A stretch of DNA of 64,000 bases from a virus (IMGVR_UViG_3300035670_000019:32001-96000); one strand, 5' to 3'. Shown: positions 3,455 to 64,000, counted from the first letter of the stretch. Notes: generated by a model not told the origin, from the sequence alone. Translations and numbers: made by a program.

Positions 3455-4066
3455 ATGAAACAAATACTTATTGAAACCCAAACATTCTCTGCCAAACCAG
3501 TCAAATTAATTGAAGGTAAAGGTAGTAATAACAATATATTAGTTCAAGGTATATTAGCAACAGCCGAAGTAAAAAACGGTAATGGTCGCTATTATTCAAG
3601 AGATTTATGGGAAAGAGAAATTAATAAGTATATGGAGAGTGTTAATGCCAATAGAGCATTAGGCGAACTAGATCATCCTGATTCTTCTATTATTAATTTA
3701 AAAAATGTATCCCATAATATTAAAAAAATATGGTGGGATGGAGATAATGTGATGGGAGCAATAGAAATTCTACCTACCCCTTCAGGCAATATATTATCTG
3801 CTTTATTTCAAAACAATATTCCAGTAGGTGTATCATCACGTGGTATGGGTTCATTAAAACAAATGGGTGAACTAATGGAAGTACAAGATGATTTTGAATT
3901 ATTATGTTGGGATTTTGTCTCAACCCCATCAAACCCAGGTTCATATATGAAAGAAAAAGGCATGATGAATGAATCTAAAACACCTCAACAATATAACCAA
4001 TATGCTAAAGTAAATTCTATTATCACAGACATACTTTGTGCTAATGGAACTTGCCCAATATTTTAA
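3455..4066 (+). CDS. Prohead core protease, T4 gp21-like
   Basis: Motifs NGNGRYY, ALGELDHP, NVSH, GVSSRGMGS and WDFVSTPS. Confidence 0.95.
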   Translation: MKQILIETQTFSAKPVKLIEGKGSNNNILVQGILATAEVKNGNGRYYSRDLWEREINKYMESVNANRALGELDHPDSSIINLKNVSHNIKKIWWDGDNVMGAIEILPTPSGNILSALFQNNIPVGVSSRGMGSLKQMGELMEVQDDFELLCWDFVSTPSNPGSYMKEKGMMNESKTPQQYNQYAKVNSIITDILCANGTCPIF

Positions 4067-4255: not shown

Positions 4256-5446
4256 TTGAGGACAATGAACAGAGAAATGCTAAAAGAATGCATTGCTGAT
4301 GCTAAAACTATTAGAGAAACAGCAATTGCAAGCGCAAAAGTAGCTCTTGAAGAAGCATTCACTCCCCAACTCACTGCTATGTTTGCTGAAAGGTTAAATG
4401 AGCTTGAATTAGAGGAAGCTGAAACTGAAAAAGAGCCAACTGATGAAATGTACAGTAATGAAGAAAAGAAAGAAGAAAATCTTGAAGAAGATTTTAATCT
4501 TGAAGAACTTCTTGCTGAGTTATCAATGGAAGAAGAACAAGAACCTACAATGGAAGGTGAAGACACGGAAGATGAGCCATTAGAAGAAAATCTAATGCTT
4601 GAAGACATGTCTGACGAAGAAATTGAAGAACTTGTTATGCAAGTCATTGATGACATGATCGCATCTGGTAAGCTTATGCCTGGTGAAGGCGAAGAAGAAG
4701 ACATGGAAGACATGGAAGACATGGGTGATGAAGAAGAAGTAGAAGATGAAGAAATCGATATTGATGAAATTTTATCTGAAGCTGATTCTGAAGAAGTTAA
4801 AGAAGAAATGGTAAATGAAGGAGCAGCAATGGAGCTTTTTCAAGCTATTTTAGATCAATTTAGCTCCGCTAAAGAATTCTTCCAAGGGTTATATGATATA
4901 ATACAACAAGGAGGAGATCCAGAAGTATACATGATGGAAAAAGGACAAAACCCTACAGTTTTAGCTGGCATTGGCTCAGCTTTAGGATTTGGGGTTTTAT
5001 TAGCTAAAGTATTTGGAAAATCTGCTGTTGATAAATTAAAAGCATTTTATCAAAAATATGGTAAAGGAGCTAAATCAACAACTGAAGCTACAAATGAAGA
5101 AATGGAAGAAACTATCAATGAGCTTCGCAAAGAACTCAACGAAGTTAATCTATTAAACGCTAAGCTTCTTTACACCAACAAAATCTTCAAAGCTAAGAAT
5201 CTTACCGAATCAGAAAAAATCAAGGTTTTAAACACGTTTGACAAAGCAGAAACTGTTAAGGAAGTTAAACTCGTATTCGAAACTTTAACTGAATCTTTTA
5301 AAGCTACTACAGCTAAAAAGAATCCAATTAAAGAATCATTAGGATCAGCTTCTAAAACAATTTCAACTGCTACCCCTAAACAACCAATTATTGAGGTTAA
5401 TAGCGCTTTTGCTCGTATGCAGCAACTTGCTGGCCTCAGAAAGTAA
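4256..5446 (+). CDS. Prohead scaffold/core protein (gp22-like position); start may be ATG at 4265
   Basis: Very acidic coiled-coil protein between protease and capsid, with many LxE sites. C-terminal EVNLLNAKLLY...RMQQLAGL. Confidence 0.85.
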   Translation: MRTMNREMLKECIADAKTIRETAIASAKVALEEAFTPQLTAMFAERLNELELEEAETEKEPTDEMYSNEEKKEENLEEDFNLEELLAELSMEEEQEPTMEGEDTEDEPLEENLMLEDMSDEEIEELVMQVIDDMIASGKLMPGEGEEEDMEDMEDMGDEEEVEDEEIDIDEILSEADSEEVKEEMVNEGAAMELFQAILDQFSSAKEFFQGLYDIIQQGGDPEVYMMEKGQNPTVLAGIGSALGFGVLLAKVFGKSAVDKLKAFYQKYGKGAKSTTEATNEEMEETINELRKELNEVNLLNAKLLYTNKIFKAKNLTESEKIKVLNTFDKAETVKEVKLVFETLTESFKATTAKKNPIKESLGSASKTISTATPKQPIIEVNSAFARMQQLAGLRK

Positions 5447-5484: not shown

Positions 5485-7155
5485 ATGGAAACAATTCAAC
5501 AATTAGTTGAGTCTGCCAACCCATGGAGATCACTTCAGAGTGATGCAGCTAAATTAGCTCGCAAGTGGGAAAAAACCGGCCTTTTGGAAGGTCTTGGTGA
5601 AGACGTCAACAAGAACAACATGGCTTTGATGTTGGAAAACCAAGCAAAGCAATTAGTAGTAGAAACATCTCAAACTGGTACTGGTGCTACTTTTACAGTA
5701 GGCACTGGTGAACAATGGGCTGGTATTGCGCTTCCTTTAGTACGTAAGGTATTTGGTCAGATCGCTGCAAAAGAATTTGTTAGCGTTCAACCAATGAACT
5801 TACCTTCAGGTCTTGTGTTTTTCCTTGACTTCCAGTATGGCACTACTAAGAGCCCATTTACCTCAGGTAATTCTATGTACGGTAATCGTACTTCAACTCA
5901 GTATCCATTTGCTACCCCAGCTGCTGAAGGTGGTTTATATGGTGCTGGTCGTTTTACTTACTCTACTAACCAATTCTCTGCTTCTGTAGCATCTGGTTCT
6001 AACGTTGTTACTCAAGCAACAATTGGTACAGCTACTTGGGCTACAGTAAATTATAATTCTGATTTATCAGCTTCAGTTGCTTCATTATACACTGTCACTA
6101 TCTCAGCTAGTGGTGTACTTTCAAACCCAGATCTAGATGCAGTTCGTGGTTTCTTAGTTAGTGGCTTAACTAATCAAGTTGGTACATACAATCTTCAAGC
6201 TTTCACTACTTATAGTAATTCAACTGATAAAATTACATTTGTAGTATCAGCTTCTTCTTCTCCAACTGGTACAGCTTTAGTAGAATATAACAAAACTACA
6301 GCTGATAACAAGCGTGGTGATTTTGAAGATGGTAGTACATATGCTATTCCTAACGCTGAAAGCTCAACAGCAATTTCTATCCCAGAAATCAACATCTCGA
6401 TGCAATCTCAAGCCATCACAGCTAAGACTAAAAAGTTAAAGGCTGTATGGACTCCTGAATTTGCTCAGGACTTGAACGCATATCAAAACTTAGATGCTGA
6501 AGCTGAATTGACTAACATCATGAGTGAGTACATCTCATTGGAAATCGACCTCGAAATCCTTGATATGTTGATCCAAGATGTTCCTTCAACCAATATTGAA
6601 TATTGGACAGCTCAAAACAATGGTGTTTATAATTCAGCTAACACTAACGGATTTGATTTCCCATCATCAACTAGCCAAACTGGATTCTACAACACTCAAG
6701 GTCAATGGTTCCAAACTCTTGGTACTAAACTTCAAAAGTTGAGCAATAAGATTCACCAGTTAACCCTTCGTGGTGGTGCTAACTTCATGGTAGTTTCTCC
6801 AACTGTAGCTACAATCATCGAGTCTATTCCTGGATTCGCTGCTAACAGCAACGGTGATGCTGCTGACATGGAATATGCATTTGGTGTACAGAAAGCTGGT
6901 CAATTCAACAGCCGTTACACTGTTTATAAGAATCCTTACATGACTGAAAACACTATCTTAGTTGGTTTCCGTGGTAAGCAATTCTTGGAAGCAGGTGCTG
7001 TGTTTGCTCCTTACATTCCATTGATCATGACACCTCTTATCTACGATCCAGATACCTTCACTCCACGTAAAGGTCTCTTGACTCGCTATGCTAAGAAGAT
7101 GTTACGTCCTGAATTCTATGGTAAAGTATTAGTAAGCGGTTTAAATACCCTCTAA
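5485..7155 (+). CDS. Major capsid protein, T4 gp23-like
   Basis: Motifs VSVQPMNLPSGLVF, AKTKKLKAVWTPEFAQDL, FAPYIPL and DPDTFTPRKGLLTRY. Confidence 0.97.
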   Translation: METIQQLVESANPWRSLQSDAAKLARKWEKTGLLEGLGEDVNKNNMALMLENQAKQLVVETSQTGTGATFTVGTGEQWAGIALPLVRKVFGQIAAKEFVSVQPMNLPSGLVFFLDFQYGTTKSPFTSGNSMYGNRTSTQYPFATPAAEGGLYGAGRFTYSTNQFSASVASGSNVVTQATIGTATWATVNYNSDLSASVASLYTVTISASGVLSNPDLDAVRGFLVSGLTNQVGTYNLQAFTTYSNSTDKITFVVSASSSPTGTALVEYNKTTADNKRGDFEDGSTYAIPNAESSTAISIPEINISMQSQAITAKTKKLKAVWTPEFAQDLNAYQNLDAEAELTNIMSEYISLEIDLEILDMLIQDVPSTNIEYWTAQNNGVYNSANTNGFDFPSSTSQTGFYNTQGQWFQTLGTKLQKLSNKIHQLTLRGGANFMVVSPTVATIIESIPGFAANSNGDAADMEYAFGVQKAGQFNSRYTVYKNPYMTENTILVGFRGKQFLEAGAVFAPYIPLIMTPLIYDPDTFTPRKGLLTRYAKKMLRPEFYGKVLVSGLNTL

Positions 7156-24849: not shown

Positions 24850-25338
24850 ATGGCAATTATAGACGCAAATGAAATGTTTTTTACAGCGTTTGAACCAAAA
24901 CAGGCTAACCGATTTATCCTGTACGCTGATGGAATACCAACATGGATGATTAAAGGAGTAAGTGCAGTGAACTTAACTCAAGGTGAAGTAATATTAAACC
25001 ACATTAACGTTTTACGTAAAGTAAAAGGTAAAACAGTTTGGGGTGATGTTACTATGACACTTCATGATCCGATTTCACCATCAGGTGCTCAAACAATCAT
25101 GGAATGGGTTCGCTTATCACACGAATCAGTAACAGGTAGAGATGGATACTCAGACTTCTATAAGAAGGATTTAGTTATCAATGCTCTTGGTCCTGTAGGT
25201 GACGTGGTAGCAGAATGGGTACTTAAAGGCGCATTTGTAAAAGATGCTAACTTTGGTGAATATAACTGGGATACTGAAAATACCGCTATAAACATCACAA
25301 TGACATTAGCAATTGACTACGCCGTGTTAAACTACTAA
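24850..25338 (+). CDS. Tail tube protein, gp19-like
   Basis: Follows the sheath. Motifs EPKQANRF and YKKDL...GDVVAEWVLKGAF. Confidence 0.92.
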   Translation: MAIIDANEMFFTAFEPKQANRFILYADGIPTWMIKGVSAVNLTQGEVILNHINVLRKVKGKTVWGDVTMTLHDPISPSGAQTIMEWVRLSHESVTGRDGYSDFYKKDLVINALGPVGDVVAEWVLKGAFVKDANFGEYNWDTENTAINITMTLAIDYAVLNY

Positions 25339-55727: not shown

Positions 55728-56199
55728 AGAAAATTATGTACCATTTGTAAGCGAGGTAGAGGAGTTTAACGCTACAATGGGCAAACCAAATAACTATACT
55801 CCTAGTATTCCAGATGAAAAAGAATGGATGTTTGTTTATAATTTTATTCTAGAGGAACTAGAAGAATATAAAGAAGCATGTCAACAAGGAGATATTGTAG
55901 GTGTATTAGATGCACTATGTGATATTACTTATGTTTCATTAGGTAACGGAGCAATGTTACACGGTCTAAAAGATAAAGTACAAGACGCGTATGCTGAGGT
56001 ACAAGCATCAAATATGTCTAAGGCTTGTAAAACAGAAGAAGAAGCTCAACAAACTGTTAACCGTAGAACAATAGAGCAAGGAATGGAATGTCACTATGAA
56101 AAACAAGGTGATTATTGGGTAGTGTATCGTACTTCTGATCGTAAGGTGATGAAGTCAATTAACTATTTTAAACCAAATCTAGAACAATTCTTTAAATAA
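55714..56199 (+). CDS. MazG-like (all-alpha) NTP pyrophosphohydrolase
   Basis: EELEEY, DALCDITYV, EVQASNMSK and KVMK. ATG at 55714 preferred over TTG at 55687. Confidence 0.85.
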   Translation: MSQSKENYVPFVSEVEEFNATMGKPNNYTPSIPDEKEWMFVYNFILEELEEYKEACQQGDIVGVLDALCDITYVSLGNGAMLHGLKDKVQDAYAEVQASNMSKACKTEEEAQQTVNRRTIEQGMECHYEKQGDYWVVYRTSDRKVMKSINYFKPNLEQFFK

Positions 56200-58787
56200 T
56201 GTACCAATCAATCTATTACGATTTTAGTACTTACACCTATTATTTACGAGACGATAAGCAAGGCTGGATGGAATTCCAATACCAGCCTACTTATTGGCAA
56301 CGTACAAACGAATGGTCTGAGAATGCTAGACCTGTTCTAACAGGTGGATGGGCTGTACCTACTAAAAAGTATAGTAAAGATGATCCTGATTTATTAGAAA
56401 AAGATATTGATAAGTCACTTGTTGTATTACGAGAGTTGTACTATAAGGAAGATGATGTTGTACCTGCTTGGCATAACATAGTTTATATTGATATTGAGAT
56501 TGAAATGGGAGGTGCTTTGACACCTCACTATATTCAACAAGCACCTATGCCTCTTACATCTATTGCTCTTATAGATGTGACCACTAAACAAAAAATATGT
56601 TTTGTTGTTGACCCATCAGGCCAAATTAAAGAAACAAATCAAGATGATAAGTTAATCATACCTTGTAGAAACGAAAAAGAATTAATAGGTAAATTCTTAT
56701 CCAAATTTGAAGAACTAGATCCCACAATATTAGTTGGTTACAATTCAGATTACTTTGATATGCCTTACCTATACTTCCGAATTAAGCAAGTTGTAGGCGA
56801 AGATGAGGTACTACGTTTATCTCCAATCAGAAAGGTAACTGCTAGAGAATTTAATGGTGAAAACCAAATTACTATTGGGGGTGTTAATTGTCTAGACTAT
56901 ATGTTGCTTCATAAAAAATACATTATGAAGGAAGAACCATCATATAAATTAGGCGACATTGGAACCAAATATGTTAATCTAGGTAAAATTGAATATGAAG
57001 GTAATTTAAATACATTGTTTAAAGACGATATAAGCAAGTTTATAGACTATAACCTTCGAGATGTTGAAATCATTGAAGCACTAGAAGCTAAACTTAAGTT
57101 TATTGACTTAACAATAATGATTTCTCATATCTGTAATATTCCATATGAAAGCATTTATTGGAATACAGTTATGAATGAGGGTGCTATTTTGAAGTATCTT
57201 AAACGTGAAGGTATTATTTCACCTAATAAACCAACAACTCATAATCCATCACTTAAAAACTTTAAAGAAACATATGCTGGTGGTTATCTATTAGAACCTA
57301 TTCCTGGATTGTACTTTGATGTTATTGATTTAGACTTTACATCACTGTATCCTTCAATTATTAAGTCACTTAATTTAGGTATTGAAACATTAGTAGGTCG
57401 AATCAAAGTACCTTATATGGCTACCTATGAACAAAATCATAGTCTAGATAAACTTAAAGAACGTGATCCAAATGAAGAAGTTGTAGTTGAAAAAGTAAAT
57501 AAAAGAAACTATACTTTAACCCAAGCAAAAGTTAAACTAGGAGACCTAATTAAAATTATTGAAGACAATAACTTTACCATCTCAGCCTCAGGTGCTATGT
57601 TTAAAACTGATGAACAAAGTGTTGTAGCTAAGATTTTGGAAGGATGGTTTGATAAACGAGAACATTATAGAGGTTTAAAGAAAAAAGCAGGTAAAGAAGA
57701 AGATTGGGCTAATTATAAATTATATGATTTGTTCCAACATGCATTTAAAATCCTACAGAATGCAATGTATGGTACATTCGCTAAAAGTGGATGGCGTTAT
57801 ACTGACGGACAATTAATTTGTAGCGCCGCTATTACTAATACAGGTCAATCATTAACTCAAAATTCAATTAAGTTTGTTAATAATAAACTAAACACTGAAT
57901 TAGAATCCGATAAACAATACATTTGTATTAGTGATACAGATTCTATGTATATTGAATTAGGTGATTTATTAAAACACAGACACCCAAATTCAGTTCCTGA
58001 AGATAAAGACAAACATATCCTAGAGTTAGCAACTGAAATTCAAGATGAATCTAATCATCATCTAAATACTTTATGTAAAGAGCTATTCAATATTGACCCT
58101 AAAAAACATTACTTCCAGTTAAAACAAGAAGTAATTGCTAAAGGTATCTTAGTTACAGGTAAGAGAAGATATGCTATGTATATCACTAATAAAGAAGGTG
58201 TCACTGTTGAAGAACTAGATATGAAAGGTATTGAATTGATGAAATCCAATATGAATAAAATGTTTAAGTCATTTGGAGAACAATTCATTAAAGATGTTTT
58301 ATTTGGTAAACCTAAATCTGAAATTGATAAGTCAATTATTGACTTCTATAAATCACTCAAATCAGTAGACCCCAAACAACTAGGCAAACCTACTGGAGTA
58401 AAACAAATATCCTCATACCATATACCAGCTCGTGCAGGTGAAATGTTTAGTAATTTTAAATTGAAAGCACCTTCAAATACTAAAGCAGCTGTTCGTTATA
58501 ATGACTTATTAAAGTTTAAAAAACTAGATAAAAAATATGAATCAATAATTGAAGGTGATAAGATTTTTATTATTAACCTAAAACCAAACATGTATAAATT
58601 AGAAACTATTGGTTTACCAAATGCTAAAGTACCTGATGAGATAGAAAAGTTTGTTAAAATGTATATTGATATAGATGAAATTTTTGAATCATTATTATTG
58701 AATAAGTTAAAAGAACTCTATAGTGATCTTAAGTGGGAATTCCCGCCACTAAATGCTAATGTAACTAAATTTTTCTCCTTTGGATAA
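56199..58787 (+). CDS. Family-B DNA polymerase, gp43-like
   Basis: ExoI DIE, GYNSDYFD, YNLRDV, DFTSLYPS, KILQNAMYG, SDTDS and KRRYA. Confidence 0.97.
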   Translation: MYQSIYYDFSTYTYYLRDDKQGWMEFQYQPTYWQRTNEWSENARPVLTGGWAVPTKKYSKDDPDLLEKDIDKSLVVLRELYYKEDDVVPAWHNIVYIDIEIEMGGALTPHYIQQAPMPLTSIALIDVTTKQKICFVVDPSGQIKETNQDDKLIIPCRNEKELIGKFLSKFEELDPTILVGYNSDYFDMPYLYFRIKQVVGEDEVLRLSPIRKVTAREFNGENQITIGGVNCLDYMLLHKKYIMKEEPSYKLGDIGTKYVNLGKIEYEGNLNTLFKDDISKFIDYNLRDVEIIEALEAKLKFIDLTIMISHICNIPYESIYWNTVMNEGAILKYLKREGIISPNKPTTHNPSLKNFKETYAGGYLLEPIPGLYFDVIDLDFTSLYPSIIKSLNLGIETLVGRIKVPYMATYEQNHSLDKLKERDPNEEVVVEKVNKRNYTLTQAKVKLGDLIKIIEDNNFTISASGAMFKTDEQSVVAKILEGWFDKREHYRGLKKKAGKEEDWANYKLYDLFQHAFKILQNAMYGTFAKSGWRYTDGQLICSAAITNTGQSLTQNSIKFVNNKLNTELESDKQYICISDTDSMYIELGDLLKHRHPNSVPEDKDKHILELATEIQDESNHHLNTLCKELFNIDPKKHYFQLKQEVIAKGILVTGKRRYAMYITNKEGVTVEELDMKGIELMKSNMNKMFKSFGEQFIKDVLFGKPKSEIDKSIIDFYKSLKSVDPKQLGKPTGVKQISSYHIPARAGEMFSNFKLKAPSNTKAAVRYNDLLKFKKLDKKYESIIEGDKIFIINLKPNMYKLETIGLPNAKVPDEIEKFVKMYIDIDEIFESLLLNKLKELYSDLKWEFPPLNANVTKFFSFG

Positions 58788-58813
58788 TATGTATAACATA
58801 TAAACTCGTTATC

Positions 58814-58969
58814 ATGAAATTTACAAATTCTTGGAAAGCAATTAATACACAACATGACAAACTTAGATTTGTTGCTCGTGTATCATCTTTAACATTACTT
58901 GAAGTTAACATTGATGTTTCTTCAAAAGTATACAAATTAACAATCTTTAACTTCGGAATTCAACTATGA
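58814..58969 (+). CDS. 51-aa hypothetical protein missed by the ORF track (MKFTNSWKAIN...FNFGIQL)
   Basis: Late motif at 58787; ATGA overlap with the next gene. Confidence 0.65.
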   Translation: MKFTNSWKAINTQHDKLRFVARVSSLTLLEVNIDVSSKVYKLTIFNFGIQL

Positions 58970-59562
58970 AAAAATCAGAATTGCAGCAAATCATAAGAGA
59001 AGAGATTAATAAAACAATCAACGAAGCAAAAATTTATAACTCATCTAGTGACGCTGCTAAAAAACTAATGCGACAATTAGAAGATCTAGTTCTTAATGGA
59101 GAAATATCAAACCCAGATATAGAAGAACTTAGAAGTAGATTACGCACTGCTAATCTATTTTCTAAATATAAACTATCTCCTGAAAAACGTAGAGCGGCCT
59201 TTGATAAAGAATTTAAAGATAGTGAAAAAGCTGAAAAAGAATTAGCTCGTGATACTAAAAAACCAGATGATGCTTTTAAAGTTGGATCATTAACTAAAAA
59301 ACAAAATAAAGAAAGAAAAGACGCTAATAAATTACCTTTAGTAATTTACACATCTGGAAGAGTAGGAGCAATCGGAACAGAATTAGGTGATATGAGAAAA
59401 TATTATGATATAGTTACACCTGAAATAGATCTTCAATTTCATACTGGTGCGGTATATGGTGATAAACCATCTTATATACTTAATCCAAAATATAGAGATA
59501 AATCATTCGCTAAAGCTAAAATCGCTTGGAGTGTATGGGAATCAATTAATGGAAAACTTTAA
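58966..59562 (+). CDS. Putative internal head protein with MKKSELQQIIREEI..INE leader
   Basis: 21-aa leader shared with the next gene; downstream of a late motif. Confidence 0.7.
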   Translation: MKKSELQQIIREEINKTINEAKIYNSSSDAAKKLMRQLEDLVLNGEISNPDIEELRSRLRTANLFSKYKLSPEKRRAAFDKEFKDSEKAEKELARDTKKPDDAFKVGSLTKKQNKERKDANKLPLVIYTSGRVGAIGTELGDMRKYYDIVTPEIDLQFHTGAVYGDKPSYILNPKYRDKSFAKAKIAWSVWESINGKL

Positions 59563-59614
59563 TCAAAAAAAAATTAATATATTTATAAACAAATGTAAAA
59601 ATCTATAATAAAAA

Positions 59615-59884
59615 ATGAAAAAATCACAATTGCAACAAATCATCAGAGAAGAGATTCAAAACACTCTTAATGAAGCATTAAAAATTAATTCTAATCCTAA
59701 TGTTACAAATGATAATCAAAGAGGATATAAAGATACAATAGTAAATAAAACTACTAGAGCAGATCGTGATACTGTATTTCCTGGGGTAGAAATTACTCAA
59801 CCTGGAAGTGGTGGACTTAAAACTGTATTTATTCCAAGTAGTGAGTTTCCGAAGTTGATAGCTTTTTTACAAAAAAGTATGTAA
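59615..59884 (+). CDS. Putative internal head protein with MKKSQLQQIIREEI..LNE leader
   Basis: Shared leader with an unrelated body; late motif at 59579 and a terminator after it. Confidence 0.7.
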   Translation: MKKSQLQQIIREEIQNTLNEALKINSNPNVTNDNQRGYKDTIVNKTTRADRDTVFPGVEITQPGSGGLKTVFIPSSEFPKLIAFLQKSM

Positions 59885-59906
59885 ATAATGTAAAATACTT
59901 TAAATT

Positions 59907-59939
59907 AGGCTTGCAAACGCAAGCCTTTTTTGTTATATT
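59907..59939 (+). terminator. Terminator hairpin overlapping a TTGCAA-N17-TATATT promoter
   Basis: AGGCTTGC-AAAC-GCAAGCCT-TTTTTGTTATATT. Confidence 0.85.
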
Positions 59940-59945
59940 ACAAAC

Positions 59946-60668
59946 ATGATATCAAAACTAGAATTACAAAGCGTTATAGAAAAATACCATCTAAATGGTT
60001 TAATTGAAAATGTTAAATGGGAAATAAGTAAAGATAAACAACTTACTATCAATTTTATGTCCCCATCTAGGGAAATGATAGGTAAAGTAGTTTATACTGG
60101 TTTTCCACTGCCTGAATCTGCTATTGGTATTAATAATACCACTCAATTAGATAAACTACTAGCCATCACAAGTGGTGATTTAGTACTTGATTATGTTAAG
60201 GAAGGTAAAGTAATATCTAAACTATTAATAGCAGATGAGCAATTTAATCTAAACTATGCTCTATCAGATCTACTAACCATCCCTAAACCAGGTGAATATA
60301 ATGGTTCTGAAGAATTTGATACCGAATCAGTATTAGATAATGAAATCATTAGTGCATTGATTAAAGCTAAAAACGCTCTAACCAATAGTGAAAATGTAGT
60401 TGTTAAACCAGATACATTAGGTTTAGGATTTACATTTGGAGGTGATGTTGAGTATGCTAATAAAGTATCTTATTACATTCAAAATGCAACACCTTCAGAA
60501 GTAGATTTTGAACTTGTATATAATTCAAATCTATTAAAAGAGATATTAGCTTGTAATAAAGATATGGAAAATGGTACACTATATGTTAAAAACATAGGTT
60601 TAATGAAACTTATGTTCACTAGCAAAAATATTCAAAGTACTTATTATATTGTCGCGAAAGAAAATTAA
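59946..60668 (+). CDS. DNA polymerase sliding clamp, gp45/PCNA-like
   Basis: 240 aa with a two-domain beta/alpha pattern and C-terminal GLMKL.F.....STYYIV; close to polB. Confidence 0.7.
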   Translation: MISKLELQSVIEKYHLNGLIENVKWEISKDKQLTINFMSPSREMIGKVVYTGFPLPESAIGINNTTQLDKLLAITSGDLVLDYVKEGKVISKLLIADEQFNLNYALSDLLTIPKPGEYNGSEEFDTESVLDNEIISALIKAKNALTNSENVVVKPDTLGLGFTFGGDVEYANKVSYYIQNATPSEVDFELVYNSNLLKEILACNKDMENGTLYVKNIGLMKLMFTSKNIQSTYYIVAKEN

Positions 60669-60675
60669 TTCACAT

Positions 60676-60731
60676 ATATTTATAATAAAGGTTACAACTT
60701 GCTTGGCTTCCCAAGCAGAAGATGTTATATT
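60676..60731 (+). promoter_or_regulatory. Tandem late motif (60676) and TTGGCT-N17-TATATT promoter (60703-60731) with a hairpin
   Basis: TGCTTGG-CTTC-CCAAGCA hairpin without a U-tail, upstream of the chaperonin operon. Confidence 0.7.
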
Positions 60732-60748
60732 TAATTAAATAATAAGTT

Positions 60749-61075
60749 ATGAAAGAAGAAAAACAAGCGTTGTCGTCTTTGACGCTAATCAAAGACCCAC
60801 TCATTGAACCTTATTTTATCGGTAAAGATGCTAGCAGTTACACTGTCTATGAAACCTTAATGCCTGGTAATAATAAAAAAGGCAGAGGACGTCAAACTCG
60901 AGAAAAAGAAGGTATTAAACCATTATCATTCCATTCTAATTTCGATTCATGTTTAGCTTCAATCGCTAAACTAAAAATTGAAAATCGCCCAGTTTACAAC
61001 TCAATTTCAGAGTATGTAGCAGAATGGAGACGAGTAAAAGAAGAAATCAACCAAATAGTTAATATAGAAAAATGA
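60749..61075 (+). CDS. Hypothetical protein
   Basis: 108 aa (IKDP.IEPYFI.KD...YTV), first gene of the groES-groEL operon. Confidence 0.75.
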   Translation: MKEEKQALSSLTLIKDPLIEPYFIGKDASSYTVYETLMPGNNKKGRGRQTREKEGIKPLSFHSNFDSCLASIAKLKIENRPVYNSISEYVAEWRRVKEEINQIVNIEK

Positions 61076-61398
61076 AAAAGTTACAAGCAACATTTAACGC
61101 AGTTATAGTTAAGCCTCGCGAAGAAGAAGAAACAATGTATGGAGGTATCATTGTACCCGATTTGGGTAAAGAAAAAGCACTTATTGGAACAATTGTCTCA
61201 ATTGGTGAAGGTTACCATTCAGCAACTGGTACTTGGATAGACACAAGTCTAAGAGTAGGAATGGAAGTAATGCTGCCTAGTATGGGTCCTAACAAAATTG
61301 AATTTGATGGACAAGAATATTGGGTATGCCCTGAAAACCAAGTGCTAGCAGTTATTGAGGATGCTAAAGAAGTTGAATTAGAAGTTACAAACAAATAA
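61072..61398 (+). CDS. groES: Co-chaperonin GroES
   Basis: VIVK...E..YGGIIVPD..KEK, GTIVSIGEG and VLAVI. Confidence 0.92.
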   Translation: MKKLQATFNAVIVKPREEEETMYGGIIVPDLGKEKALIGTIVSIGEGYHSATGTWIDTSLRVGMEVMLPSMGPNKIEFDGQEYWVCPENQVLAVIEDAKEVELEVTNK

Positions 61399-61404
61399 AA
61401 AGTT

Positions 61405-63024
61405 ATGAGTAAAATTATAGAATTCGGACCCGAAGCAAGGAAAAAACTCGTAAACGGTATCGATAAGTTGTCGAATGCTGTTACGTCAACATTAGGACCT
61501 AATGGCCGCAATGTTGTTATTTCAAACAATCAAGGCTACCCACAATCAACAAAAGATGGAGTGACAGTAGCTAAAACAATCACACTTGAAGATCCAATTG
61601 AAGAATTGGGTGCTCAACTTGTTAAACAAGCAGCTATTAAAACAGCTGATGGAGCGGGTGATGGTACAACCACTTCTACACTGTTGGCACAGGAGATGGT
61701 TAAAAACGGTTTAGTACACCTTAACAACGGTGTTAACGCTGTTAAAATCAAGCGTGATATTGATTCTGCTGTTAAAGAAGTAGTTAAGGAACTACGTAAA
61801 GGTATCTCACAAGACATTAGCTCTGAAGATCAACTTAAACAAGTTGCTACTATCTCAGCAAACAATGATCCTGAAGTGGGTGAATTGATTGCTACTGCAA
61901 TGCAAAAAGTAGGTCGTGAAGGTGTAGTTCACATTGAAGAATCAAAATCAGGTGAAACATATCTTGAAACAGTAGAAGGTATGCAGTTTGATCGAGGCTA
62001 TAAGTCACATTACTTTGTTACTGATAACAATACAATGACTTGTACTCTCGAGAATCCATTGATTCTTATTGCTGATAAGCGTTTTACTTCAATTAAAGAA
62101 CTACTCCCAGTACTAGAAGCAGTATCTAATCAAGGTAAACCATTGTTTATCATCGCTGAAGATTTAGATGGTGAAGCACTTGCTACACTTATTGTAAATA
62201 AGATGCGAGGTACTATTAAAGTATGTGCTGTTAAAGCTCCTGACTTTGGTGACCGTAGAAAATTGCTTTTGGACGACATTGCGATTTTGACAGGAGGTGA
62301 GGTATTTAGTACTGATAAGGGCATGAAGCTAGACAAATTCGATTGGAAATGGTTTGGCGAAGCTCGTTTAGTAACAGTAACAAAAGACCAAACAACAATT
62401 GTTGATGGAAAAGGAGAATCTGAGAGAATTCAAACACGTATTGAAGAATTACAACAACAAATCGAAAAAGCAAAGACCCCTTTCGAACAAGAAAAATTAC
62501 AAGAAAGGCTCGCGAAATTTGTCGGAGGAGTAGCAATCATTCACGTAGGAGGCAATACAGAAACCGAGGTTAAAGAAAAGAAAGACCGCGTGGACGATGC
62601 TTTGCAAGCCACTAAAGCCGCAATTGAAGAAGGTATTGTACCAGGTGGTGGCTCAGCTCTATTGTATGCTCGTGAAGCAATCACAAACGCAAATACTGTT
62701 GGTGGAGGAATTGTATGGAAAGCATGTTCTGCTCCATTTATGAAAATTCTTACTAATGCTGGCTATGAAGAAATGGAAGCATATCAGTTGATCAATAATA
62801 TGTTTAATGTTCGTGATAACTGGAGAGGTTATGATCTTGAAGCACAAAAGTTTGTTGATATGAAACAAGCTGGAATTATAGATCCCACCAAGGTCACAAG
62901 AACCGCAATTGAAAACGCGGCATCAGTAGCTGGAACAATTCTATTAACTGAATGTACTGTTGTAGACAAGCCTGAAGATAACAAACAGGATGATATGATG
63001 GCAGGAATGGGAGGAATGTATTAA
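61405..63024 (+). CDS. groEL: Chaperonin GroEL
   Basis: TLGPNGRNV, TKDGVTVAK, GDGTTT, EGMQFDRGY, KAPDFGDRRK, IIDPTKV and a GGM-type tail. Confidence 0.98.
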   Translation: MSKIIEFGPEARKKLVNGIDKLSNAVTSTLGPNGRNVVISNNQGYPQSTKDGVTVAKTITLEDPIEELGAQLVKQAAIKTADGAGDGTTTSTLLAQEMVKNGLVHLNNGVNAVKIKRDIDSAVKEVVKELRKGISQDISSEDQLKQVATISANNDPEVGELIATAMQKVGREGVVHIEESKSGETYLETVEGMQFDRGYKSHYFVTDNNTMTCTLENPLILIADKRFTSIKELLPVLEAVSNQGKPLFIIAEDLDGEALATLIVNKMRGTIKVCAVKAPDFGDRRKLLLDDIAILTGGEVFSTDKGMKLDKFDWKWFGEARLVTVTKDQTTIVDGKGESERIQTRIEELQQQIEKAKTPFEQEKLQERLAKFVGGVAIIHVGGNTETEVKEKKDRVDDALQATKAAIEEGIVPGGGSALLYAREAITNANTVGGGIVWKACSAPFMKILTNAGYEEMEAYQLINNMFNVRDNWRGYDLEAQKFVDMKQAGIIDPTKVTRTAIENAASVAGTILLTECTVVDKPEDNKQDDMMAGMGGMY

Positions 63025-63284
63025 TGAAAATCGAGATCCAAGAACAATTAGAACTAATCGCTACACGCGTTCCACCTGGAGACAGGTGGACGCTTGTAGG
63101 TGATAAGACTAAAGTATACAATTCAATAACTGATACTTTAGAAGCGTATTTTCAACTAACTAGGAGAGCATGTGAATATAGATTAGCTCCTTTAAAAGGT
63201 GAGTTATATGCTGTTCATTCTCAAGAAGTTGAAATTGCACCTGAACCACCTAAACGCTATGATATTTATGGAGACTATCAATAA
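63024..63284 (+). CDS. Hypothetical protein
   Basis: 86 aa with TAATG overlap to groEL; IATRVPPGDRW. Confidence 0.75.
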   Translation: MKIEIQEQLELIATRVPPGDRWTLVGDKTKVYNSITDTLEAYFQLTRRACEYRLAPLKGELYAVHSQEVEIAPEPPKRYDIYGDYQ

Positions 63285-63319
63285 AGGTAGTAATATGTAT
63301 AATAAAACATACTAATACA

Positions 63320-63592
63320 ATGAATAAAGAGTTTCTTAAAATGCAAAAATTGGCTGGTTTGATTACTGAAAGCCAAGTAGAAGAAATAATAGGTGATATT
63401 GATGATACTCCATCCCCTGATGGAAAATTTAACCCAATGGATTACGCTGATGATCCTGGGTATAGCAGTGATAAGGTTGCTTTTTTAGCAAACGCCTTTC
63501 AATATATTTGGAATATGGGTAAAGGTAATAATAAGATTGATTTTGAAGATATGGCTAAATCCACTATTGAAGATTTAGAAACCAGATTTTAA
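63320..63592 (+). CDS. Putative internal head protein with a scaffold-like KMQKLAGLITE leader
   Basis: Late motif at 63293 and a terminator after it. The leader matches the scaffold C-terminus RMQQLAGL. Confidence 0.7.
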   Translation: MNKEFLKMQKLAGLITESQVEEIIGDIDDTPSPDGKFNPMDYADDPGYSSDKVAFLANAFQYIWNMGKGNNKIDFEDMAKSTIEDLETRF

Positions 63593-63618
63593 TAATCTTT
63601 AATACAATACTTTAAACT

Positions 63619-63651
63619 AGGCTTGGGAAACCAGGCCTTTTTTATTATATT
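63619..63651 (+). terminator. Terminator hairpin overlapping a TTGGGA-N17-TATATT promoter
   Basis: AGGCTTGG-GAAA-CCAGGCCT-TTTTTATTATATT. Confidence 0.85.
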
Positions 63652-63707
63652 AAGTTATAAACACATTTGATGAAAGGGGAGATGGTGTATATTTATAATA
63701 AAATAAT

Positions 63708-64000
63708 ATGAAAGAATATACATGCCCATCATGTGGTAGCACTAAATTTTTAAAAGAAAATTCCCATTATGAAGCAACTCGATTAAAAAGAATTTGTAAA
63801 AGTTGTGCTATGAAAAAATGGCAAGATAAAAAATACGGCAAAAAAGAAATATATAAATTTAATAGCACTTGCCCTAACTGCAAACAAACCAAAACCCATA
63901 CATATAAAAATCCATTAAGCCCTACCCAGGCTCAAACCTTATCAAACAGATTATCATCTCAATTATGTTATTCATGCTCAAATTCAGAGTATTATGTTTT
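63708..64000 (+). CDS. Cys-rich zinc-finger protein, possibly the N-terminus of another homing endonuclease (3'-truncated)
   Basis: MKEYTCPSCG...ICKSC...TCPNC...LCYSC; open to the window end; late motif at 63689. Confidence 0.65.
   Translation, partial: MKEYTCPSCGSTKFLKENSHYEATRLKRICKSCAMKKWQDKKYGKKEIYKFNSTCPNCKQTKTHTYKNPLSPTQAQTLSNRLSSQLCYSCSNSEYYV

Follow-up and report, generated by a model that had tools for sequence, protein, structure and literature searches.

This study concerns short N-terminal leaders carried by small accessory genes of a T4-type phage. The window, i.e., the whole stretch of DNA that was analysed, comprises 64,000 nucleotides (nt), bases 32001-96000 of a 163,030-bp phage genome (IMGVR_UViG_3300035670_000019) with a G+C content of 31.7%; positions are those of the window unless marked as genome positions. 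The phage is uncultured, of the T4 type, with a host in the phylum Bacteroidota, and is kin of Flavobacterium phage immuto (vB_FspM_immuto), its nearest cultured relative, with a capsid-protein identity of 56%; a related capsid protein is encoded on at least 594 IMG/VR contigs. The replication module is ordered as polB (56199-58787), a 240-amino-acid (aa) clamp-like open reading frame (ORF), groES, groEL, an 86-aa ORF and an RFC-type clamp loader, which lies just beyond the window's end. Two positions within this module take up accessory genes: slot 1, between polB and the clamp-like gene, and slot 2, between the GroEL-adjacent 86-aa ORF and the clamp loader.

The three small ORFs that a first-pass annotation had placed in the replication region, named here by their start positions (58966, 59615 and 63320), were all present (Table 1); the first two carry a leader referred to as A and the third a leader referred to as B. 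The terminators claimed behind 59615 and 63320 were both recovered as stem-loops with T-runs (59907-59926 and 63619-63638). The late-type motif ATATKTAT, said to precede each ORF, was located directly ahead of 59615 and 63320, whereas 58966 is preceded by it only at the operon level (179 nt), because a conserved 51-aa ORF (58814-58969) intervenes. Homologues of this 51-aa ORF in two IMG/VR contigs are 73-90% identical, with the motif upstream and a different leader-A ORF downstream each time, and their comparison shows the least change at second codon positions. Single accessory ORFs stand between their own motif (59579, 63293), a putative promoter, and their own terminator (59907, 63619). The best explanation of the three ORFs is that they are accessory, moron-like cassettes, each consisting of a late-type motif, leader-tagged ORF and terminator, in two hypervariable slots.

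Table 1. Features of the leader-tagged cassettes, the head module and the third-leader loci of relatives (window positions unless a locus is named).
Feature	Position	Strand	Remark
Prohead protease, T4 gp21 type (Peptidase_S77)	3455-4066	+	starts MKQILIE; E 1.8e-29
Scaffold C-terminal tail, P-I-I-E / VNSAFARMQQLAGLRK	5384-5443	+	resembles leader B; I-x-E site just ahead
Gp23-type major capsid protein	5485-7155	+	E 2.6e-72
Predicted maturation site L-V-V-E60 of Gp23-type capsid protein	5653-5664	+	
Late-type promoter motif ATATGTAT	58787-58794	+	overlaps polB stop codon; heads first cassette
51-aa ORF, conserved, leaderless	58814-58969	+	stop overlaps 58966 start (ATGA)
Leader-A cargo gene, 198 aa	58966-59562	+	leader is codons 1-20 (58966-59025), ends INE
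Late-type motif ATATTTAT	59579-59586	+	36 nt ahead of 59615
Leader-A cargo gene, 89 aa	59615-59884	+	leader is 59615-59674, ends LNE
Intrinsic terminator, closes first cassette pair	59907-59932	+	8-bp stem, 5 GC pairs, then TTTTTT
TTATATTA element, native upstream of clamp-like gene	59933-59940	+	right edge of the insertion
Late-type motif ATATGTAT	63293-63300	+	27 nt ahead of 63320
Leader-B cargo gene, 90 aa	63320-63592	+	leader is 63320-63370, ends ITE
Intrinsic terminator, closes 63320 cassette	63619-63644	+	stem-loop at 63619-63638 with T-run
Third-leader (MIKLT-type) loci in relatives	L165:584-1357; L118:3918-4445; L122:3951-4457; L123:7794-8614		

Leader A has the consensus MKKSELKQIIKEEIxKVLNE, an amphipathic helix of 20 residues. 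A BLASTP comparison of 58966 with 59615 (E 4e-11) found similarity confined to the N-terminus, and the first 63 nt of the two genes are about 84% identical, bearing out the earlier claim of a common leader fused to unrelated bodies; all three leaders also close on I/L-x-E as described (INE20, LNE20 and ITE17). Within this genome leader A is strong on five proteins and weak on two more, each leader type being present in 4-7 copies. A 30-column profile built from six leader-A copies and searched against 1.84 billion cluster representatives (cut-off E <= 1e-3) matched 1,496 of them, nearly all starting at residue 1. Among the 136 best matches, the information content is 3-4.3 bits at most of positions 1-20 and falls below 0.6 bit from position 22, 134 of the 136 proteins have [LIVM]-x-E at positions 18-20, and the bodies separate into 102 unrelated BLAST components, which is the diversity of passengers that the first-pass annotation had proposed to look for with such a profile. 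A single conserved fold across leader and body was thereby ruled out, and a signal peptide was ruled out because the leaders form amphipathic helices that are charged. An ADP-ribosyltransferase of the ART-PolyVal type (45.8 bits) is among the leader-A passengers, and both of the two complete genomes that were recovered through leader A and examined encode an S77 protease. A word-indexed protein search with 59615 returned same-body homologues only, and leader A had no tblastn match among 50,697 records of cultured phages. Several metagenomic proteins (P0081, P0082, P0093, P0102 and P0179) contain two or three complete in-frame copies of leader A in the order leader-body-leader-body, one such protein carrying leucine-rich repeats; these look like fused cassettes or natural polyproteins.

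Leader B of ORF 63320 consists of 17 residues, MNKEFLKMQKLAGLITE; the core, F-x-[KR]-M-Q-x-L-A-G-[LI], matches the motif of the conserved C-terminal tail of the scaffold. The scaffold-like ORF (4256-5446; 396 aa, very acidic) lies between the protease and capsid genes and ends in ...PIIEVNSAFARMQQLAGLRK, with RMQQLAGL exactly at 5414-5437, as had been noted when the start of 63320 was first matched to it. The tail is conserved as PI[IVLM]E-x(6-8)-R[MWF][QKR]xLAG[IL] in 57 distinct tails of relatives, and the immuto scaffold, which ends in ...ISEVSEQVSRWQKLAGIIK, keeps the same motif. (The immuto homologue, L001:4725-5966 in NC_055915, is annotated as a 'DNA polymerase phi-like protein', a label that probably arose artefactually from the acidic, low-complexity region of the protein.) A profile made from the 57 tails alone and searched against the 916 six-frame ORFs of this genome ranked the scaffold first (E 5e-11), followed by three N-terminal B-leader ORFs including 63320 (E 0.008-0.014), with the internal B copy sixth. 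The scaffold encodes the shared core residues with codons that differ from those of leader B, indicating similarity at the protein level and no recent copying of DNA; the earlier wording, that the leader copies the scaffold C-terminus, therefore holds for the peptide and fails for the nucleotides. In this genome leader B heads three proteins, sits inside a fourth and matches the scaffold tail; at least 12 unrelated bodies carry it in almost unchanged form. The relatives' version reads MKxxLNE-QFxRMQKLAGIITE, with x-Glu on either side of the core, and the core is further found at internal positions and, in a second protein, C-terminally. In tblastn against the cultured phages, immuto was the sole match for leader B.

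The use of codons bears on whether the conserved 5' coding stretch acts as DNA or RNA, for example as a recombination arm or translation-initiation region, with a functionless peptide. The cassettes are clearly shuffled, the 45 nt upstream are co-conserved with the leader in many loci, and the high DNA identity of the leader pair in the window would fit such a role. However, the invariant residues of leader A use 3-5 synonymous codons each (five for Leu6), and therefore selection acts on the peptide; the different codons of the B core in the scaffold, and the internal and C-terminal occurrences of the B motif, point the same way. A role in recombination may coexist with a peptide function, but it leaves the amino-acid conservation unexplained, and an explanation by nucleic acid alone is very improbable.

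The leaders also look interchangeable, with at least two types and probably a third. The body encoded at genome position 18486, which has hydrophobic segments, carries leader B here, whereas its immuto homologue (E 3e-8 over 175 residues) has an A-like leader, and with one orthologous body under B in one phage and under an A-like leader in the other, the two look exchangeable. Immuto carries both leader types, with tagged ORFs that start near positions 25079, 102294, 102880, 111690 and 113188 of NC_055915. The third type, MIKL(T/L)D(I/L)LKEI..., occurs in relatives at the same two slots, on ORFs that are unrelated to one another. In the protein at genome 19155-20189, an A-like N-terminus is combined with a B motif in the interior, between LNE and ITE, and with a segment that is hydrophobic and rich in Gly. 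Overall, the comparative data strongly support the claim of at least two portable leader types on unrelated bodies, ending at a conserved aliphatic-x-Glu. The two adjacent tagged proteins at genome 18486-20189 (L008) have hydrophobic Gly/Ala-rich segments like the scaffold's VLAGIGSALGFGVLLAKVFG.

The head module of the genome contains further candidate sites of the same form. About 70 relatives keep the sequence NQAKQLV[VTMI]E in the Gp23-type capsid protein, ahead of a G/S/T-rich linker that varies, and the L-V-[VTMI]-E within this conserved sequence matches the position of the gp23 cut; in the protease, L-I-E7 (residues 5-7) is comparable with LIE-9 of gp21. Aliphatic-x-Glu was thus found at both leader ends, at the capsid propeptide junction, in the P-I-[IVLM]-E before the scaffold tail and at the protease N-terminus, so that, as far as sequence can indicate, the putative cleavage site occurs everywhere the T4 model expects it.

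The passengers themselves could be assigned to no family or fold with Pfam, PHROGs, ESM Atlas, AlphaFold2 (AF2) and Foldseek. Pfam and PHROGs gave no match for the three passengers or the 51-aa ORF, ESM Atlas gave no usable match for the 58966 body, and a Foldseek search of the PDB with the AF2 model of 59615 gave nothing below E 0.15. The 59615 body is modelled as a small three-strand-plus-helix domain with an isoelectric point (pI) of 9.6 (moderate model; predicted local distance difference test score, pLDDT, 69). For 58966 the model is poor (pLDDT 53), with the leader predicted to be helical over residues 3-20, the protein predicted to be mostly helical or disordered, and the predicted mature part basic (pI 9.5, charge +9); the predicted mature part of 63320 is acidic (pI 4.05, charge -10.5).

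These properties were considered against the possibility that the leaders dock in the prohead while the passengers are transient core or assembly accessories, comparable to T4 gp67 and gp68, that are degraded or expelled at maturation. The helical or disordered prediction for 58966 would agree with this, as would the genome 19155-20189 protein, whose hydrophobic Gly-rich segment resembles the scaffold's, and the head-module ORFs 2134 and 2637, whose N-termini also show a helix followed by LxE. Against it, one passenger family is an ADP-ribosyltransferase, the three window bodies hold few internal aliphatic-x-Glu sites relative to the scaffold, and the cassettes are dispensable and come and go among close relatives, which is a better fit to accessory cargo. 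Such a transient role therefore seems unlikely.

The variability of the two slots is extensive. In most of 18 relatives, slot 1 contains only 24-40 nt from the polB stop to the clamp-like gene, spanned via a conserved TTATTATATTA element; where there is no insertion, the polB stop is directly followed by this element and then by the start of the 240-aa gene. This genome has an insertion of 1.16 kb that separates the polB stop from the element, and in other relatives the slot holds a B-leader ORF or an ORF starting MIKLT(D/N)LLKE, which is of the third leader type. Slot 2 contains 0-3 tagged ORFs in relatives, in any mix of A, B and third type, and in this genome holds 63320 and a Zn-ribbon protein with a C-terminal nuclease-like region. 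Both slots are empty in many relatives that retain GroEL and polB, and this pattern of empty slots and changing mixes of tagged ORFs strongly supports the plug-in arrangement that had been proposed. In morons and in the mobile regulatory cassettes (genes flanked by promoter-stem-loop sequences) of T4-type hyperplastic regions, the promoter is of the early type. The cassettes here are similar in that a single small ORF with its own motif and terminator lies between conserved genes and varies in presence among syntenic relatives; they differ in that the promoter is of the late type and a coding leader is common to them as well as the regulatory flanks.

Several further elements were observed at the slots. 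A conserved (T)TATTATATTA element, which every relative has 8-10 nt ahead of its clamp-like gene, also stands immediately behind each of the two cassette terminators (59933-59940 and 63645-63652), and may be a second promoter class or an initiation signal. The Zn-ribbon neighbour of 63320 in slot 2, a 212-aa ORF behind a late-type motif (63708-64000 in the window; in full, L167:109-747), bears Cys-x2-Cys pairs at its N-terminal end; its C-terminal region, ...VLVEIDGVYWHG..., resembles a nuclease of the Vsr/DUF559 type, and the product may be a homing endonuclease. The polB gene of several relatives (L112:649-4462; L114:87-2826; L118:612-3909) is divided into two parts by the insertion of an ORF that begins MIKIYYLH.GD..PFYIGYT; this ORF itself has a late-type motif upstream and looks like a homing endonuclease of the GIY-YIG type.

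The late-type motif shows no excess over chance in the window (31 occurrences vs. 24.8 expected). Its distribution by strand and by place is nevertheless far from random: genome-wide there are 64 occurrences on the plus strand vs. 15 on the minus strand, mostly 12-45 nt ahead of the start of a sheath, tube, baseplate or adaptor gene. Within the window it precedes the sheath, tube, baseplate-hub and adaptor genes and not those for SSB, UvsX, DnaB, RNR or polB, and this placement before structural rather than replication genes supports, without proving, a late promoter class. The expectation that the leaders travel with the motif was borne out: leader A by itself retrieved 24 independent loci from IMG/VR, and 18 of them have ATATTTAT at -22 to -27; the motif occupies the same interval before the first tagged ORF in slot 2 of relatives. 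In the window the motif also occurs at 60676, ahead of ORF 60749, which heads the groES-groEL unit, and the presumed 5' leader between them (60676-60748) contains a GC-rich hairpin (cttgcttgg cttc ccaagcag).

The position of the cassettes in the replication module, flanking the phage groES/groEL, might suggest that the leaders are docking or oligomerisation helices for a non-capsid hub, such as the phage chaperonin or a replication factor, with the x-Glu ending incidental; the leaders are generic amphipathic helices, and their cleavage is a prediction only. Several results run counter to this: the B core equals the conserved scaffold tail, most other tagged genes of the genome are clustered just upstream of the head module, the motif ties the tagged genes to structural genes, leader conservation stops exactly at the Glu, and the slots are empty in many relatives still having GroEL and polB. 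A hub outside the capsid is accordingly a poor prospect.

Combined, these results make it fairly probable that the leaders work as the capsid-targeting sequence (CTS) of T4 does, with passengers docked in the prohead, trimmed, retained and leaving with the DNA. The T4 protease gp21 cuts behind L/I-x-E, and foreign proteins are loaded into the head with no more than the first 10 residues of the internal protein IPIII (PMC9026906); the internal proteins of T-even phages are a diverse set with only the CTS in common (PMC3012670). By analogy, each leader would dock its passenger in the assembling prohead, leader A perhaps into the scaffold core and leader B at the site, wherever it lies, to which the scaffold tail itself binds. 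Cleavage by the gp21-type protease after the terminal aliphatic-x-Glu of the leader would follow, and the mature passenger would stay in the head and probably exit with the DNA. Packaging and injection, like docking and cleavage before them, are inferred, as is any action in the host, such as anti-defence.

As judged by sequence comparison, the leaders appear to be a variant of the T4 system in which the leader sequences are new, the scale is far greater and one leader mimics the tail of the scaffold. In both systems a short N-terminal peptide, which in T4 is carried by IPI, IPII, IPIII and the Alt propeptide and removed by gp21, heads unrelated, rapidly changing proteins. The leaders here likewise end in aliphatic-x-Glu, the genome encodes an S77 protease, a gp22-like acidic scaffold and a Gp23 capsid protein, and the ART-PolyVal passenger parallels the packaged Alt of T4. 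Unlike the T4 sequence, to which leader A has no detectable relation, the leaders comprise 17-20 residues rather than about 10, exist in at least two interchangeable types, probably three, on more than 1,000 clusters rather than on a handful of proteins, include one that repeats the C-terminal tail of the scaffold, and are organized in promoter-terminator cassettes within the replication module of a phage of Bacteroidota that is known from its sequence.

Other systems offer looser parallels. In the giant phages phiKZ and SPN3US, many head-internal proteins, propeptide-bearing ejection and inner-body proteins among them, are cut after Glu in a short motif by a diverged gp21 homologue (PMC9026906, PMC7411985). 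The Glu-ending short-motif sites are a likeness; the giant-phage propeptides are instead long, have no single portable tag, and are cleaved as proven by mass spectrometry. Encapsulins, in which a short terminal peptide directs varied cargo inside an HK97-fold shell, are an analogy only: their cargo-loading peptides are usually C-terminal, are retained and act without scaffold or protease, whereas the leaders here are N-terminal and predicted to be cleaved, with scaffold and protease both in the genome.

Several observations weigh against a CTS-like function. The passenger charges vary (two basic, one acidic), whereas the internal proteins of T4 are uniformly basic, and aliphatic-x-Glu is a short motif that is common in these Glu/Lys-rich proteins. 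The leader A profile found no match in the T4 genome at E <= 10. With respect to leader B, the aromatic position of the scaffold tail varies among M, W and F without covariation while the leaders stay M, which rules out strict covariation of tail and leader, and one complete relative has the scaffold tail but no B leader. Late timing is assigned from the position of the motif by structural genes only, and the motif differs from the T4 late consensus, TATAAATA. With T4 gp55 as a single-sequence query nothing was found in this genome; a gp55 PHROG match at genome 147074-147370 (L164), whose product is a candidate late sigma factor, is weak (E 3.8e-5, 20 bits) and non-specific, firing in 8 of 14 control genomes (bacteria). 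In the searchable literature we found neither a virion proteome nor N-terminal sequences or expression data from this clade, and likewise no description of these leaders, whose strings gave no match there.

The reuse of the scaffold's conserved tail by one cargo tag provides a concrete, testable docking hypothesis. A tentative extension, which we regard as possible rather than probable, is that leader B loads its passengers by mimicking the docking tail of the scaffold. The motif F-x-R-[MWF]-Q-x-L-A-G-[IL] would then mark the interface at which T4-type scaffold cores and cargo bind the prohead, and leaders A, B and the MIKLT type would label thousands of clusters of fast-turning-over, head-delivered effectors in an abundant clade of aquatic Bacteroidota phages. 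Since both leader types occur in a cultured phage, immuto, the idea is open to bench experiments, and a working orthogonal pair of leaders would serve the packaging of foreign proteins in phage heads. The leaders also serve as a sequence label, with which a simple profile search could catalogue the proteins probably delivered from the head in a large group of uncultured phages; proteins of this kind are leading candidates for roles in anti-defence and host takeover.

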